Source: Candidatus Krumholzibacteriia bacterium (GTDB taxonomy: Bacteria; Krumholzibacteriota; Krumholzibacteriia; JAJRXK01). From it: a stretch of DNA of 64,000 nt. The translations under genes were made by a program, and so were the position numbers. The notes beneath the pieces are model-generated. The model saw only the letters and a program-made list of their open reading frames with translations. It was not told where the DNA came from and made no database searches. Shown here in pieces: positions 2,307-10,097 of the stretch (positions are counted from its first letter, which is position 1; each line of letters begins with the position of its first letter). Where the stretch lies: positions 32,001 through 96,000 of the forward strand of contig JBGPIA010000004.1 of the NCBI GenBank assembly GCA_041484665.1, read 5' to 3'.

Positions 2307-3521
2307 CTAGGCGCGCGCGCGCAGACCCGGCGCGGGGGATTGCGGACCGCGGTCGAGGCGACGGGCGCGCTGCTGCTGCAGCGCGAACGCCGAGTCGAGC
2401 AGGGCGACGAATCGGTCGTACCCGATGGGCTTGCCGGCCTGCAGATCGACGACGCGGCGCGCGGGAGCGGCCAGCGCCTCGTCTTGCCAGCCGGTGAGCA
2501 GCACGATCGCGACGGAGGGGTCCCGCTCGCGGATCCGCGCGGCGGCCCACAGCCCCGTCTCATCGGGCAGCCCCAGATCGAGCACCACCACGTGATGGAC
2601 GGCAGGATCGAACGCCGCCACGCCTGCGCGTGCCTCGTGGGCGAGCGTAGCCGGCAGGCCCTCCAGCGCGCACATCTCGCCCAGGACATTCGCCACGTCG
2701 ATCTCGTCATCGACGATCAGGACCCCCAGGCCTTCCCCGCGCGGCGCCGCGGCGCGCCGCACGGGCATCGCCGCGCGCGCCCGCGCCGGCTCGTCGGCCG
2801 TCCGCAGCAGGATGCGCACGCGCGTGCCCGCGCCCGGCTGGCTCTCGACGGTGAGCTCCCCGCCCTGGCGCCTCACCATGGCGAGGGCGTTGGACAGGCC
2901 CAGGCCCGATCCGACGCCTCCCTTGGTCGTGAATTCGGGCTCGAGGCAGCGCGCCAACGTCGGCGCGTCCATCCCGCAGCCGTTGTCTAGCACCTCGAAC
3001 ACCACCCAGGCGTCCCGGCGGCTGGCCACCAGGTCGATGCGTCCCCACTCGCGCAGCGCGTCCAGTGCGTTGCTGATCAGGTTGTTGAGCACGTGTCGCA
3101 GGTCGTCGGCTCGTCCCCAGACCCAGAGCGGCCCGTCCAGGTGTGGGAGGATCTCCACGTGTCGGCCATCGGCCTTCATCCGCCCCACCTTGGCGGCCCA
3201 CAGCTCCACGGTCTCGCACACGACCAGGGCCAGATCGAGGGGCTCGCGCGGGGAGCCTTCGGCGGGTCCGGTGGCGCGCATCTGGTCCAGCACCCTCTGG
3301 CTCAGCGAAGCGCACGCGCCGGCCGCCTTCTGGATCAGCTCGGCACGATGGCGCAGCGAGGGGTCGGCCGCCTCGCGCAACAGCGACTCCGTCTGCCAGA
3401 GGATGATCTGCAGCATCTGCGCGTAGTCGTGGACCAGGCCGTGGGAGAGCTCGCCGAGGAGGCGCAGGCGGACGTCGCGCGGCTGGAGCCCGCCAGGCAG
3501 GTTGGGGTCGATCACGCGCAC
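2307..3521 (-). CDS. Cytoplasmic hybrid histidine kinase (HisKA-HATPase-REC), no sensor domain
   Basis: H-box GELSHGLVHDY, N-box NNLISNALDA, DNGCGM, FTTKGGVGSGLGL, receiver LIVDDE...VLDLGLPDETG. Confidence 0.85.
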   Translation of the reverse strand: MRVIDPNLPGGLQPRDVRLRLLGELSHGLVHDYAQMLQIILWQTESLLREAADPSLRHRAELIQKAAGACASLSQRVLDQMRATGPAEGSPREPLDLALVVCETVELWAAKVGRMKADGRHVEILPHLDGPLWVWGRADDLRHVLNNLISNALDALREWGRIDLVASRRDAWVVFEVLDNGCGMDAPTLARCLEPEFTTKGGVGSGLGLSNALAMVRRQGGELTVESQPGAGTRVRILLRTADEPARARAAMPVRRAAAPRGEGLGVLIVDDEIDVANVLGEMCALEGLPATLAHEARAGVAAFDPAVHHVVVLDLGLPDETGLWAAARIRERDPSVAIVLLTGWQDEALAAPARRVVDLQAGKPIGYDRFVALLDSAFALQQQRARRLDRGPQSPAPGLRARA

Positions 3522-3536
3522 ATCCCGCAGCCAGCG

Positions 3537-3571
3537 AAGAAAACGCCGGACCCACTAGCGTGGGTCCGGCG
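3537..3571 (-). terminator. Rho-independent terminator
   Basis: Perfect 12-bp stem cgccggacccac/gtgggtccggcg, 4-nt loop, followed by TTTTCTT on the minus strand. Confidence 0.8.
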
Positions 3572-3720
3572 ATTCCGGGCACTCATCCTTGCCTTCGCGA
3601 TCGTACGGACGAGGTAGCGATGAGTCAGATCTTGCGGGCCGAGCGGCGGAAGCCCCTCGTATTCCTGACACACTTCCGACCGCCCGGTCCCAGCAAGACG
3701 GCTTGTCTGCCTATCCGAGC
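3537..3720 (-). ncRNA. Candidate sigma54-dependent small RNA (~185 nt)
   Basis: Bounded by a -24/-12 promoter and an intrinsic terminator; internal stems (actcatc/gatgagt, gcagac/gtcttgc); no ORF with an RBS that ends before the terminator. Confidence 0.55.
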
Positions 3721-3730
3721 TGATCAACCT

Positions 3731-3746
3731 CGCATTGAGCGTGCCA
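3731..3746 (-). promoter_or_regulatory. sigma54 (-24/-12) promoter
   Basis: Minus strand TGGCACgctcaATGCG: perfect -24 box and GG-N10-GC spacing. Confidence 0.7.
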
Positions 3747-3853
3747 GTTGCACAGGATCGCGTGCACGCGGGACACATTCGCCCAACCCATTCAAGTATA
3801 ACAGGTTATGCGCAACATGCGATCGAGGGCTCTTCGGGCATTTCCGGCCTACA

Positions 3854-3888
3854 GTAAGAAAAATTTACGTTTCGTAAAATCTCTTTAC
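3854..3888. promoter_or_regulatory. Tandem palindromic enhancer (UAS) sites GTAA-N7-TTAC x2
   Basis: GTAAgaaaaatTTAC (3854-3868) and GTAAaatctctTTAC (3874-3888), 20 bp apart, in an AT-rich island ~110-140 bp upstream of the -24 box. Confidence 0.65.
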
Positions 3889-3906: not shown

Positions 3907-4275
3907 CTACATCTCACCGTGGCCGGTCTCATCCGGAGGGGTATGGTGGATCGGAGACTCGAACTCCGTGGGCCCGCTGATCTCGCCGCTCACGACGAGG
4001 ACATCCGGTGCGCCTTTCCACACGATCCTGGTGCGCACGGAAGACTCGTTCGGCCGCGCCAGGTCCAGCACGCCGTGGAGCACGCCAGACTCCACCGTGA
4101 CCGTCAGCGCGAGCTCGTCCGTGGACTGGATGATCAGAGTGCCGTCGCCAATCGGCACCTCCGTCGTGCCCGCCCCCAGGAAGATCCGCTGGGAAATGGC
4201 CGCGTGGAGGACGGCGGCGGTGAAGACCAACAGGACGGCCGCAAGCCACGCAGTCCAGTGCTTTCGGGTGGCCAT
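3907..4275 (-). CDS. Small secreted hypothetical protein
   Basis: AGGAGG RBS; MATRKHWTAWLAAVLLVFTAAVLHA signal peptide. Confidence 0.6.
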   Translation of the reverse strand: MATRKHWTAWLAAVLLVFTAAVLHAAISQRIFLGAGTTEVPIGDGTLIIQSTDELALTVTVESGVLHGVLDLARPNESSVRTRIVWKGAPDVLVVSGEISGPTEFESPIHHTPPDETGHGEM

Positions 4276-4456: not shown

Positions 4457-7400
4457 TCAGCCGGGCCCGGCCCGGCGGGCCCGCACCGCGCCCGGGGGCG
4501 CCTCGTCGTCCGCCTCAGGGTCGGCGTGCTCGAGCGGGCGGCTTCCGAACAGCGCGTAGAAGCGCCGCAGACGATTGTAGAGCGTGGGCTTGGTGATGCC
4601 CAAGAGCCGTGCGGCGCGCGCCTTGTTGCGCACAGCGAGCACGACCTCGTGCGCCATGAGGATCTCGAGCTGCGGCATGAGGGGCCGCTCCTCGGAGTAG
4701 TCCTCCGCATCCACCATCGCGCGCACCGCATCCGACACGCTCTGGCGTGTCGGCGCGCCGCTGGTCCCCAGCACCGTGGCGGGCAAGTCCTCCACGCGGA
4801 TGACATCCCTCCCGGCGAACACCATGGCGTTCTTCACCACGTTCTCCAGCTCGCGTACGTTGCCGGGCCAGCGGTACTCCATCAAGCGCGCGATGGCCTC
4901 CTCACTCATGGTGCGCTCGGGGCTGCGAAACTCCTCGGCATACCGCCTCAAGAAATGCTCCACGAGCGGCTTGATGTCCTGCGGACGATCGCGCAGCGGT
5001 GGGATCTGAATGGAGATCACGTTCAGCCGATAGAACAGGTCCATGCGGAAGCGTCCCGCCTCAACTTCCCCTTCCAGATCGCGGTTGGTGGCCGCGATCA
5101 CGCGGGCGTTGGTGCGGACGGTGCGCACGCCGCCCACGCGCGTGAAGCTCTTCTCCTGCAGCACGCGCAACAGCTTCGCCTGCATCGCCATGGGCATCTC
5201 GGCGATCTCGTCCAGGAAGATCGTCCCGCCGTCGGCCCGCTCGAACATCCCGACGTGGCGGTCGATGGCGTCGGTGAACGCCCCTTTCTCGTGCCCGAAC
5301 AGCTCGCTCTCGAGCAAGTTGGCCGGGATCGAGGCGCAGTTCACGGCGACGAACTCGCCCTTGCGGCGCGCGCTCGCTTCGTGGATCGCGCGGGCCACCA
5401 GGTCCTTGCCCGTGCCGTTCTCGCCCAACAGCAGGAGCGTGATGTCGTTGTCCTTCACCAGGTCGACCATGCGCAGCACGGCGTCGGTGGCCGTGCTCGT
5501 GCCGATGATGCCGTAGCGCGCCCCGGGTGAGGGAGCGGCCTGCGTGGCGGTGGCGTGACCGGAGAGCGGTGCGGACAGCCCGGTGGCCAGGCTCACCGCG
5601 CCCGCGACGGCCTGCAGGAAGACGAGCTCACCCTCCTCGAGTGGGCGGTCGCGCAGCAGGGCCAGCCACCCCGGATCGGACCCCCGCGTGCGCACGGCCG
5701 TCCACGGACCCTGCTGCAGGACGTCGGCGGCGCGCTCGGCTTCCGCGCGCGCCAGCGCCGTCGCCAGATCCCCCGGCGGCGGGCTGGTGCGGATCTCGCC
5801 TCGCACCAGGCCGAGCGTGCGCGCGGCGCGGACCCAGCGCACCTCCTCGCAGCCCAGACCAGCGGCGAGCGCGCGCAGCGCGCCTTCGAAGCGCCGCGCC
5901 TCGAGGTCTCCGCCGGCTCCCAGCAGGTCGGCCAGCGCCGTGAGCTGCTGCTCGGCACCCACGCGCGCCAGGCCGGGCGCCGGGATCTGTTCGCCGATGC
6001 GCTGCTCCAGATCGCCCAGCGCGGCGGGGAAGCGGTAGACCTCGTGGCGCGCCATGAGGTCGCGCGCCTCGATCAGGCTGGCACGGGCTTCGGCCTGCCG
6101 GCCAGCGGCGAGCTCGAGCGTCCCGCGCCGCGCCAGCGACTCCAGCTGCAGGTCGAAGCGCCGCAGCGCCGCGAGCGTGCGCGCAGCCGATCGCAACAGC
6201 TCGACCGCCCGCTCGCTCTGTCCGGCACCACCCAGCAGCTCCGCTTCCAGGGTCTCGAGCATGGCGCTCTCGAAGCGCGACGGCACCTGCTCCAGGACCT
6301 CCTTCGCCTCGGCCAGGCGCGAGGCAGCCTCCTTGTGCTCGCCCAATCGGAGCAGCAATGCGACGAACCGGCGCAAGGTCGCCAGGCGCTCGGTCTCGTG
6401 GTTGGTCGCGCGGCAGATCTCGAGGTCGCGGATGAGCAGGTCGCGCGCCTCGTCCAGGCGCCCCTCACCCATCGCCGCCTCGCCCAGCAGCCCGTGGGCT
6501 TCCGCCTCCATCTGGCGGTGGCGCAGGCGCCGCGCCAGGTGGAGGCACTCCAGGCCGCAACGGTTAGCCTGCCCGAAATTGCTCTGGTCGATGGCGAGGT
6601 AGCCCAGGTTGAGCTGCGTGGCGGCCACGCCGAGGGTGTCGCCCAGCTTGGTCTTGAGCTCGAGGCTGCGCTTGAGACAGCGCTCCGCCTCCTCCAGGCG
6701 GCCCAGCCCGCGGTAGGCCAGCGAGAGGTTGTTGTAGCTGCGCGCCACCTCCTGCACCAGGCCGGCCTGCTCGCGCAGCACGAGGCCGCGCTGCAGGTTG
6801 ATCAGGCTCTGCGAGTAGTTGCTCTCCTCGTACTGGATCAGTCCCAGCGCGTTGTAGGCTCGTGCCACCTCCAGCGGATAGCGCTTGTCGTCGAGGATCT
6901 TGAGCGTCAGCTCGCAGTAGCTGGCCGCATCGCGCGTGCGGCCGAGCTTCAGCAGCGCCGACGCCAGATCGAGGTAGATGTGCCCGCGGTGGATCACCGG
7001 GAGCTGGTCTTCGTAACGCTCCAGCCCTTCGGCCAGCAGCCGGTGCGCGTCCCGGTAATTCGCGCGGTGCTGGGCCAAGAACGCGATCTTCAGCAACAGT
7101 TCGGCGGCCAGCGGCGCCAGGCGGCCTTGGGCCAACTCCGTGGACGACTCCACCGCCGCGAGCGCCTCGGAGAAGATGCGGTCGGCGCGGTCGAGGTCGC
7201 CGTGCAGGCGATGCTGCTCGCCCATGCTCTTGGCCGCCTGGCAGCGATCCTCCAACTTGGGACGCGCCACGTCGGCCGCCTGCAGCAGCCGCTCGTAGGC
7301 CGCGTATTCCAGCAGTGGCGCGTCCTCCTGGCGCGCGCGCGCGGCCAGCTTGCGCACGAGCGAGGGCGCCCGCAGCGGCGCGCGCAGCAGCGCGGCCTGC

Positions 7401-8863
7401 AGCCGCAGCCAGTCGCCGCCCAGGCCGGTGCGGGCGCTGAGCAACTCGAGCGTCCCGCCCAGCAAGGCGGAGATCTCCGCCGCGCGCTCCGGCGGCACCT
7501 CGACCGGTGCCCCTGGCGCGAGCGCCAGGATCAGCTGCGGGTGGGCGGGCGCCTCGTCCGCGCGCGCGTACAGCACGGTCGCGCGACGGGCGCGCCAGAG
7601 GTCGTCGGCGATGGCGGCCACGCTCTCTTCAGTCAGCGCGAACGTGCTGCGCAAGAGCGTCTCGCTCAGGGGGCGGCCGCAGACGGCCAAGGCCTCGAGC
7701 ACGCGCAGCGCGGCCCCCGCTGTGGCCGACGGCTGCTGTGGAGCGCGCGCGGCCGCGTGCCGGCGCTGCGGCGGCGCTGCGTCCTCGGGAAGCGTCACCT
7801 CGTGCAGCCGTTCGCTCCCGCGGTGCCGCAGCGACGCCAGGTAGAGATCCGCCGCGCCGTCCAGGGGCGAGGCGCTGGGCGCCACCACGACGATCTCGCG
7901 CCCGTCGAGCCAGCCGGCGGCCGCCAGCCGCGCCAGCCCCTCGGCGAACCCGGCGTAGCGCTCCAGCTGATCGAGCACCACGACGCGGCCCACGGGCTCC
8001 TCGGAGGGCGAGCTCAGGGTGTGGGTTGGGGGGCCCACGTGCGGGCGCAACGTCACGTACGACCGCTTCTGCTCCCGCGCCCAGGCGCGCACGCTGTCCA
8101 GGGCCCCGCGCACCGCCGCGCGTCCCCCCCGCAGCAGCAGCGCGCCGCCTTCTTGCTGCAGATGCGCCAGCGCTTGGCGGACGGGCCCGGGCAACGCATC
8201 GTCCGCAGCACCGCCGACGCGCGCCAACGTCAGTGCTTGCAGCACGCACTCCAGGTCCACCAGATCGCTTGCCGACAGCCGGGCGCCCGCCGCGCGCCGG
8301 TAGCGGCCGCAAGCCTCCGCGAGCTCCGCGAACAGCGCGCCGACCTCGGCGGCCCCGGCGACCGGGTCGTCGTGTTGGTCTGCAGCCGGATCCAAGCCGC
8401 GCAGGATCGGCGGGAGCGCGTACGAATCGGGCAAGAAATAGGGCCCCTGGTCATCGCGCCACATCGCCGAGATGTGCAACGCGCCGCCCGGGCAGCGGGC
8501 CCGCGCCAGCGCGCCCAGCCCGTCCATCAGGCACTCGATCTCGGCCAGCGCGGCGGCCGCGGGCAGCGACAGCAGGCGCGGCTCCCACGGCTCGCCGGCT
8601 GCCTCGGGCAGGAACAGATAGAGGCTCCCCTCGCCGCGCAGCACGACGCGCGGCGGGAACGGCCGGAACAGAGGTTGCGCGGCGAACGCCGCGAGCCGGA
8701 AACGGACCGCGACCTCGCTCTGGTCGGCGCCGGGGGTGCCGATCTGCAGCAGCGTACCCGGCGCGTCGGTCGCGACGTCGCGCGCCGAGTACAGGCAGGG
8801 CTCCTCCCCCGCGCCAAGGGGGTGGAGCCGCTGGAAGCGGTGGGCGATCACACTTTCGATCAA
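4457..8863 (-). CDS. Giant sigma54 enhancer-binding protein: degenerate kinase-like N-terminus, TPR array, AAA+ domain, Fis-type HTH
   Basis: GENGTGKD Walker [63 protein letters not shown] units such as [12 protein letters not shown] and [11 protein letters not shown]. Confidence 0.9.
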
Positions 8864-9002: not shown

Positions 9003-10097
9003 TCAGCGCGGGGCGGGCGCAGCCGGCCGCAGTGCGAGGACTGGCAGCTCGAGGATGACGGCGGAGTCGGCCGGCCCATGCTCCCAGCGCAGCCGCGCGT
9101 TGAAGGCGCGTACCAGCCGGTCGCTGACCTCGTAGCGCAGCAACCGGTCGCGGGCCTCGGTCCGGTCGCCAGAGGCCTCGGGAACAGTCATGCCCTGCGC
9201 CGCGCCTGCCCCGATCCCGTGGGCGCAGCAGCGCAGCAGCGCCGTTCCATCCGAGCCCGGCACGAGCTGCAGGGTGGCCACCGTCGGGCGGCGGGCGTCG
9301 GCCATTCCGGTGGCAACGCCCAGGAATTGGGCCAACAGCTGCGCCAGCCTTGGCCCGTCGCACAGCATGCCCCCGCTGTGCGGGCGCACATCCAGCTCGA
9401 GGTGCGCGAGCTCCTCGCGACGCAAGCGGGCCATCCAACGGCGCAGGCGATCTGCGACGTCCGGCAGCGAGCTGGGCGCGGGCCGCAGCGCCACCTCGCC
9501 GTTCTCCAGCGCGACGAGCTCCTCGATGCGCTCGATGGTCTCAGAGAGCCTCTGCACGTTGCGGCGTCCGACCTCCAGGAAATGCTCGGTGGTCGTCCCG
9601 CGAGTCTCGGCTCCAGCCTCCTCGAGGATGGTCAGAGCGCTGGACAAGGACGTCACCGGCGTGCGCAGGCGATGGGAGAGGTACCCGAGGTAGCGGTGCA
9701 GCTCGGCGCGGGCCGCGACGGCTTGCGCACGGTCTCCACGCGCCCGCGCCTGCGCCAGCAGCTCGCGCAAGCGGGCGGCGTCCGGCGGGGCGGCGCACAT
9801 CCCGATGGCGCCCAGTCGCAGCGCGTCCCGGAACGCGGACGCACAGGCTTCGGGGCCGACCAGCAGCAGGGGCGCGCGGGTGGGGCGGCGCGCCAGCCCC
9901 CCGTCCAACCCGTCTTCCGCCCGCACGCGCGCCAGGGAGGCCACCAAGAGCGAGCTGTCGCCGCCCTCGAGCCAGGCGCTCAAGTCTTCTTGACCTTGCG
10001 CGCTGCGCACGCAGAGGCCCGCCGCCTCCAGCGCGCGCGCCCAGGTCTCCACGTGCGCAGGCTCCACCAGCAGCAACGCCTGCTCGCTCCTGGACAA
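9003..10097 (-). CDS. Pseudo-receiver + HisKA(DHp) protein with degenerate ATPase domain
   Basis: REC-like N-terminus without an obvious acceptor Asp; YLSHRLRTPVTSL H-box; no intact N or G boxes. Confidence 0.65.
   Translation of the reverse strand: MSRSEQALLLVEPAHVETWARALEAAGLCVRSAQGQEDLSAWLEGGDSSLLVASLARVRAEDGLDGGLARRPTRAPLLLVGPEACASAFRDALRLGAIGMCAAPPDAARLRELLAQARARGDRAQAVAARAELHRYLGYLSHRLRTPVTSLSSALTILEEAGAETRGTTTEHFLEVGRRNVQRLSETIERIEELVALENGEVALRPAPSSLPDVADRLRRWMARLRREELAHLELDVRPHSGGMLCDGPRLAQLLAQFLGVATGMADARRPTVATLQLVPGSDGTALLRCCAHGIGAGAAQGMTVPEASGDRTEARDRLLRYEVSDRLVRAFNARLRWEHGPADSAVILELPVLALRPAAPAPR

Follow-up and report, generated by a model that had tools for sequence, protein, structure and literature searches.

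A predicted sigma54-dependent RNA gene with a giant TPR-containing activator and an exported protein in Candidatus Krumholzibacteriota

The closest described systems combine a dedicated sigma54 activator with one RNA, or a TPR transcription factor with a secreted pro-peptide and an RNA output. In Vibrio, the bacterial enhancer-binding proteins (bEBPs) LuxO and SypG, together with two upstream activating sequences (UAS), drive sigma54 transcription of the regulatory RNA Qrr (PMC10162802). Pxr of Myxococcus, which acts with PxrK/PxrR, is a stem-loop sRNA with its promoter beside the gene of its own sigma54 activator (PMC10217877), and its targets are likewise reported as unknown (PMC11928866). 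Enterobacterial GlmY, which works with QseE/QseG/QseF and RapZ, is a sigma54 sRNA that serves as a protein decoy, and its activation requires the exported third protein QseG (PMC7073468). The arbitrium system aimR-aimP-aimX, a member of the RRNPP group, consists of a TPR transcription factor with a peptide-binding groove, a secreted pro-peptide and a small non-coding RNA as output (PMC6458997).

Here we analysed a stretch of 64,000 nucleotides (the window) from Candidatus Krumholzibacteriia bacterium (GCA_041484665.1, contig JBGPIA010000004.1, positions 32,001 to 96,000), in which an original prediction had proposed a sigma54 transcription unit without a protein gene. All elements of the predicted RNA gene were found on the minus strand at the coordinates of that prediction (Table 1), in a genome of 5.45 Mb with a G+C content of 69.5% that also encodes rpoN. 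Conservation, covariation, synteny and co-occurrence support the central proposal of a predicted sRNA that is made from this unit, with the giant bEBP next to it as the probable activator. Based on these sequence comparisons, we conclude that the covariation-supported RNA family with its predicted transcript represents a real, conserved and so far undescribed sigma54 RNA gene, and that a discrete transcript very probably exists.

Table 1 Predicted features of the RNA gene and its neighbourhood, given as positions within the window.
Feature	Position	Strand	Description
Sensor-less hybrid histidine kinase	2307..3521	-	Optional neighbour, reachable by read-through; five of the ten family genomes have it after the RNA
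Predicted non-coding RNA	3537..3720	-	About 185 nt including terminator; based on fold, conservation and covariation; no Rfam match
Intrinsic terminator	3537..3571	-	12-bp hairpin and U-tract; double-sided changes in 6 of 10 pairs
7-mer GAUCGCG	3596..3602	-	Invariant
Long hairpin	3631..3697	-	Double-sided changes in 7 of 22 stem pairs
Apex	3654..3671	-	18 nt, weakly paired, purine-rich 3' bulge; 12 of 12 sequences agree at 17 positions
5' element	3700..3716	-	Near-invariant, 3-bp hairpin; may pair with 3602-3596
Sigma54 -24/-12 promoter	3731..3746	-	TGGCAC-N5-ATGC; predicted start near 3720
IHF-like site	3784..3796	-	Weak in this genome: 3 mismatches to the IHF consensus
Enhancer site 2	3854..3868	-	GTAA-N7-TTAC, 20 bp from site 1
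Enhancer site 1	3874..3888	-	GTAA-N7-TTAC; family consensus GTAAA-N5-TTTAC
Predicted exported protein gene	3907..4275	-	122 aa; N-terminus hydrophobic, followed by a beta domain of eight strands and a loose, conserved C-terminal tail
C-terminal tail codons	3910..3930	-	Motif E-x-G-x-x-[ED]-[KR], here ETGHGEM; candidate ligand
Sigma54 activator (bEBP)	4457..8863	-	1468 aa; TPR array, sigma54 AAA+, Fis-type HTH (Pfam)

The module is laid out like Pxr, GlmY and Qrr, with a dedicated sigma54 activator and one RNA, but is a member of none of these systems. In contrast to Pxr, the predicted RNA has no Rfam match, the activator carries a TPR array and lacks a receiver domain, and a gene for an exported protein lies between activator and RNA. 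Compared to GlmY, there is again no Rfam match, RapZ was absent in all five genomes tested, no membrane kinase is part of the cassette, and the exported protein, a small beta protein, could not be assigned to any known family. Qrr needs Hfq, which was not found here; moreover, the UAS differ and the RNA is longer. The aimR-aimP-aimX genes are adjacent in arbitrium, and the gene order here is comparable: a TPR activator is followed by an exported protein with a conserved tail as candidate ligand, the operator and the RNA. A predicted cytoplasmic TPR transcription factor next to the gene of a secreted product, an operator and an RNA output are shared with RRNPP systems. The N-terminal HTH, C-terminal TPR and short pro-peptide of the latter are not, as the HTH is located C-terminally behind a sigma54 AAA+ domain. 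Furthermore, the system is chromosomal and belongs to a phylum outside Bacillota, the receptor would be a sigma54 AAA+ activator of 1.5 kaa, and the secreted product comprises about 120 aa with a folded 100-aa domain and a tail, compared to the 43-aa pro-peptide of arbitrium.

The two GTAA-N7-TTAC palindromes of the original prediction, two helical turns apart, are present at 3888-3874 and 3868-3854. This sequence occurs at four sites in the whole genome, two of which form the enhancer pair. Scanning the genome with an enhancer matrix, which contains this genome's own two sites (2 of 146), revealed one pair with 47.6 bits, while the next-best locus reached 22.7 bits; hence, the enhancer pair is unique in this genome. 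The TGGCAC-N5-ATGC sequence of the promoter lies at 3746-3732; the expression used to search for promoters had GG and TGC fixed beforehand. A -24/-12 promoter with a paired upstream enhancer at about -110 to -160, as found here, is characteristic of sigma54/bEBP-driven small RNAs, and so are the conserved structure, the terminator and the absence of a conserved ORF. The possible IHF site in the AT-rich tract held up in part: it lies at the usual family position and this class of site is enriched in homologues, whereas the match in this genome is weak. Sites with at most one mismatch to the IHF consensus were detected at 28 of 71 homologous loci compared to 3.6 expected, and they are also positioned. 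Over all cassette loci, the distances between enhancer and promoter cluster at ~92-96, 101-107, 109-114 and 117-119 bp, which corresponds roughly to helical-turn steps. In family f6 (L119-L127), a long inverted repeat with a T-run encloses enhancer site 1, and likely doubles as terminator of the exported-protein gene.

The ~185-nt body with internal stems folds at -99.1 kcal/mol (z = -5.54), a value that was not equalled by any of 200 shuffles; after removal of the terminator the z-score was -2.7 (40 shuffles). The 12-bp hairpin with a U-tract in front of the kinase start could be verified, with the U-tract ending at 3537, although this tract is weak in six of the ten genomes of the family (f1). 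A DNA search of 61 genomes detected the RNA in single copy in all nine Ca. Krumholzibacteriota genomes of the same family, with a core identity of 74-92%, and produced chance-level matches only in the 51 genomes outside the family. All ten f1 loci share the order activator, small ORF, enhancer pair, promoter, RNA and terminator hairpin, so that promoter and terminator are kept in relatives, and the conserved 5' GGAU of the RNA is located 13-15 nt past the -12 C in all of them. A metagenome search that was anchored on the activator yielded 21 loci, four of which contain the RNA at 130-170 bits; these four were found via the activator and not via the RNA, two being identical and one near-identical to G005. 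With an RNA model, matches were obtained in 8 of 8 f1 genomes and three chance-level ones in 142 others of the phylum, the negatives of this search being weak because the genome-wide family search missed 6S RNA. A search of sequencing runs listed no carrier of the RNA, which has no bearing on its expression. From named database records with the apex motif, the family is assigned to Ca. Krumholzibacteriota. Matches in two viral and four non-Krumholzibacteriota genomes were attributed to chance, as they covered the motif only; viral contigs contained two matches to the 18-mer and none to the motif of families f5 and f8.

Covariation was analysed in a structure-blind MAFFT alignment of 12 sequences, comprising the ten genomes and two of the four metagenome loci (the other two being duplicates or near-duplicates). 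In this alignment 96.8% of the cells pair, and compensatory, double-sided changes occur in 13 of 44 pairs, seven of them in the long hairpin and six in the terminator. None of 500 shuffles reached the observed value and slid controls gave 37-44%. Since the 12 sequences are kin, which inflates the shuffle test, we regard the covariation as support and not as a p-value. Three short helices show no double-sided change in any sequence; the short helices at the 5' end and in the apex do not vary, so that covariation cannot bear on them. An alternative 5' pairing fits worse (77.8% versus 96.8% paired). The best-conserved parts are the 18-nt apex, the 5' element and the 7-mer, and the apex is likely a recognition surface. 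A conserved ORF is absent from the interval in all 12 sequences, consistent with a unit without a protein gene.

Covariance models of Rfam 15, which include the described sigma54 sRNAs, left the RNA below the gathering score (best 13.8 bits, E 8.7) and gave nothing in the whole window. At the cassette loci, 20 loci were free of matches and 16 more contained two chance-level matches outside the RNAs, i.e. no match over the RNA at any of the 36 loci scanned. The predicted RNA is not matched by 6S RNA (RF00013), with its long closing stem and central bubble, and the genome has its own 6S elsewhere; likewise, a separate SRP RNA (RF00169) is located elsewhere with 79.4 bits. The canonical 6S RNA behind zapA (L060:1256-1439, G000:C2) scores 54.3 bits and was missed by the whole-genome family search. 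As a mimic of 16S rRNA the apex was rejected, since 129 and 143 of 500 shuffles scored equally well. hfq was not detected in any of the ten family genomes, nor RapZ in the five tested, so neither an Hfq-dependent sRNA nor a GlmY/GlmZ system is indicated. We found no description of the system or of a Krumholzibacteriota sRNA in the literature searched, although large RNA-motif surveys could contain these sequences in their supplements; the single match for the phylum together with sRNA concerns CsrA (PMC13443453).

The giant bEBP indeed ends 570 bp from the enhancer, but this interval is not empty: it holds the gene of the 122-aa exported protein (4275-3907), which the original prediction had missed. 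The TPR region of the activator (about residues 480-960) matches the peptide-binding protein LGN/GPSM2 (E 1.4e-22), with kinesin light chain arrays being similar as well, and has Asn, Arg and Lys positions that do not vary among 13 homologues. Its N-terminus appears kinase-like or NTPase-like, with an Atlas score of 0.85 that serves as a lead only. The canonical sigma54-contact loop of bEBPs is GAFTGA; it reads GAFTDA or GAFTSA here (11 of 13 sequences read). Most families contain one strong orthologue per genome. As the genome encodes about 26 full-score sigma54 activators, the activator was assigned to the RNA gene through synteny and co-occurrence only. Nevertheless, we consider it very probable that this bEBP activates the RNA gene, aided by a bend that IHF introduces into the DNA. 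The gene immediately upstream of the activator (9003-10097 of the window) encodes a HisKA protein without a Pfam ATPase domain, a possible input.

The exported protein is predicted to fold into an eight-stranded beta domain (pLDDT 86.8), while no secondary structure is predicted past residue 86 and the last ten residues have a pLDDT of 58. There was no match in Pfam, NCBIfam or Atlas and no Foldseek match in the PDB at E <= 0.001. The tail motif is the best-conserved part of the protein: among 114 homologues, selected by length from 148 hits, E is found in 92, G in 111, E/D in 110 and K/R in 95. The protein occurs in single copy in 82 of 208 genomes. It is present in this genome and its nine f1 relatives (9/9), in f3 (7/7), f6 (10/12), f5 (22/23) and f8 (13/13), is sparser in f4 (16/43) and f2 (4/91), and was not found in the activator-bearing families f7 (0/8) and f9 (0/1). 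In f2, a strong activator hit and the exported protein are found in the same 4 of 91 genomes, and both co-occur even when they are unlinked. The exported protein probably belongs to the input of this relay. A tail that itself binds the TPR array as ligand is our boldest proposal, and less likely than not.

Behind the exported-protein gene, 83 loci were examined (82 exported-protein genomes and G023, which was found by pattern). An enhancer pair with a sigma54 promoter is present at 71 of them in seven families; the remaining 12 comprise one contig that ends after the enhancer pair and 11 f4 loci without the unit. These 11, out of 16 exported-protein loci in f4, lack enhancer, promoter and RNA behind the gene (L186-L194, L196, L198; ten g37 genomes and G067). 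L190 and L191 had been dropped before the count of 71, as their promoter matches were spurious and the enhancer scored 9-10 of 20. The spacing of the enhancer sites was 19-20 bp in 62 of the first 73 loci scored. Activator, exported-protein gene, operator and RNA are adjacent in f1, f3, f6 and four f2 genomes and unlinked in f4, f5 and f8. In the latter three, the unit lies away from the activator gene with an unchanged enhancer, which ties enhancer and activator better than synteny alone would. A blind pattern of enhancer plus promoter matched in 33 of 208 genomes compared to seven control matches; it was through this pattern that the unlinked copies of f5 and f8 were discovered. Seven hits of this pattern (L164-L167, L169, L170, L181) turned out not to be cassettes, and one further hit was left out of the inspection. 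At L169 and L170 (G047, G135), a different sigma54 promoter, unrelated to the cassette, precedes a GC-rich stretch in which no ORF runs in that direction. A search for the f4-type motif over the phylum was discarded, as controls were nearly as frequent and eight inspected hits lacked a promoter unit. Taken together, genome comparison identifies a phylum-wide three-part module of activator, exported protein and sigma54 unit with a predicted RNA.

A terminator according to strict rules was detected at 52 of the 71 loci, at 129-337 nt. The RNA-like sequence of each family is family-specific and highly conserved inside its own family. A clear profile match between families was obtained for f5 with f8 only, and f1 and f2 match weakly (28.9 and 23.7 bits), having a bulged hairpin in common. 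Due to this scarcity of cross-family matches, a single RNA family is unproven by sequence. The RNA bodies of the other families fold modestly (z -2.0 to +0.2 at seven loci). The RNA of f5/f8 (L168-L185, L202-L222), with ~260-275 nt, a near-invariant hairpin and a C-rich 11-nt loop, represents a separate new RNA family. In f3 (L112-L118), the RNA comprises ~270-320 nt with two conserved domains and optional hairpin insertions.

With regard to the mechanism, we propose that the activator, once triggered, would bind the enhancer pair, that IHF would bend the DNA, and that sigma54 RNA polymerase would transcribe the 185-nt RNA, which could act in trans by offering the invariant hairpin apex to a protein. 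We give about even chances to this reading as a whole, i.e. a free-standing sigma54 RNA gene under the giant TPR activator with a predicted RNA that acts through its apex on a protein. Among the trans-acting readings, a protein-binding decoy or scaffold is slightly favoured over mRNA pairing. Three arguments favour protein binding: Hfq is absent, a rigid stem carries the invariant bases, and none of three scans for targets gave a result. A decoy or scaffold is suggested by the failure to detect Hfq and RapZ, and by the many carriers that have no CsrA. The RNA may instead be an Hfq-independent base-pairing sRNA, in which the apex (or the C-rich loop of f5/f8) seeds mRNA pairing and the family sequences co-evolve with their targets. 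Conservation that extends into the stems would fit such a function, as would the precedent of Qrr, likewise under sigma54, a bEBP and two UAS (PMC10162802). The f5/f8 RNAs point in the same direction with their invariant C-rich 11-nt loop and CCUUCCCC element. This loop and element resemble anti-Shine-Dalgarno seeds. However, hfq is missing from all ten family genomes, complementarity in this genome extends to no more than 13-17 nt, G-U pairs included, and is unremarkable in a comparison without a formal null, the f5/f8 loop has no shared target in five genomes with fewer matches than the reversed control, and the start region of the own exported-protein gene is not preferred (43 loci). Since the target scans are weak, pairing keeps a smaller yet appreciable share of the probability. 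Another candidate partner is CsrA, which is encoded in 120 of 208 genomes including this one. A sponge of the CsrB/RsmY type could be suggested by GGA at the RNA 5' end and in the apex loop, and by CAGGAA, which is the sole 6-mer in >=60% of the loci of four families. This is nonetheless very improbable: csrA was not detected in g2 (0/5), f5 (0/23) and f8 (0/13), all of which carry the cassette, GGC replaces the apex GGA in 4 of 12 sequences, and there are two conserved GGA only, compared to the many looped GGA of that RNA type.

The other alternatives concern the downstream gene and the coding capacity of the interval. The RNA could mainly be a 5' leader with a terminator, either leaky or regulated, that sets how much read-through reaches the hybrid kinase, with translation possibly starting in the 3' half of the RNA. 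The kinase starts 16-22 nt past the U-tract, which leaves no space for a promoter of its own, and its frame is in register with the invariant GAUCGCG at all six kinase-bearing f1 loci (window 2307-3602, L002-L005, L096). An in-frame AUG lies inside the RNA at four of these six loci, while one stop is found in the terminator loop here; a related kinase also follows the RNA at three f2 loci. The register of the frame and the weak U-tracts indicate that expression of the kinase by read-through may be a secondary function, and leaky read-through is possible in this genome. On the other hand, RNA and terminator hairpin are equally conserved in five kinase-less genomes and one kinase-less metagenome sequence, and a conserved antiterminator was looked for in the RNA and not seen. 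At 34 of the 58 loci that a heuristic could score (13 others were too short), a convergent gene comes next. With the kinase absent in half of the family and these convergent genes, the attenuator of the original prediction fails as the main function, and a leader as the core role is improbable. The downstream gene of f2 encodes a receiver-like domain first and then the related kinase. At all f1 loci, a predicted exported beta-propeller-like protein (weak DUF6923/Vgb hits; 1505-2287 in the window) is encoded behind the RNA or the kinase, and in three g2 genomes (L007-L009) a second short conserved element (GGGAGAATCGCGTCGACAC...GCTAGCGTG) lies between the terminator and the beta-propeller gene. 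Finally, the interval might encode a small peptide (VCQEYEGL...) from a GUG or AUG that is found at the apex foot in 12 of 12 sequences, in a frame whose stop overlaps a kinase start in this genome. The length of this frame varies from 13 codons to past the terminator, third positions are invariant, the sole variable apex base alters the amino acid, and the start codon is buried in a stem where its G/A change forms a compensatory pair. Variable lengths and the lack of a synonymous pattern therefore leave a peptide as little probable as the CsrA sponge.

Beyond a free-standing RNA gene that would act in trans, the arrangement allows for an arbitrium-like relay that would have been built independently. 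The tail heptapeptide would act on the TPR activator, with the structured RNA as its only target. The RNA would have been replaced or have diverged beyond recognition at least five times, while input parts and enhancer remained fixed. We regard this relay as speculative and rather doubtful at present.

Overall, the analysis adds a new RNA family with covariation support, along with about five sister groups of RNA sequences, from an uncultured phylum. For a giant orphan activator, it predicts where the protein binds and which single target it has, and each stage is accessible to experiments with purified components or in an E. coli reporter, with no need to grow the host. Hfq and RapZ are missing from the carriers that were tested for them, and CsrA from many, so the partner of the RNA should be new. 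If the tail is indeed the signal, this would be peptide-to-TPR signalling coupled to sigma54 transcription, a combination that we did not find in the literature.
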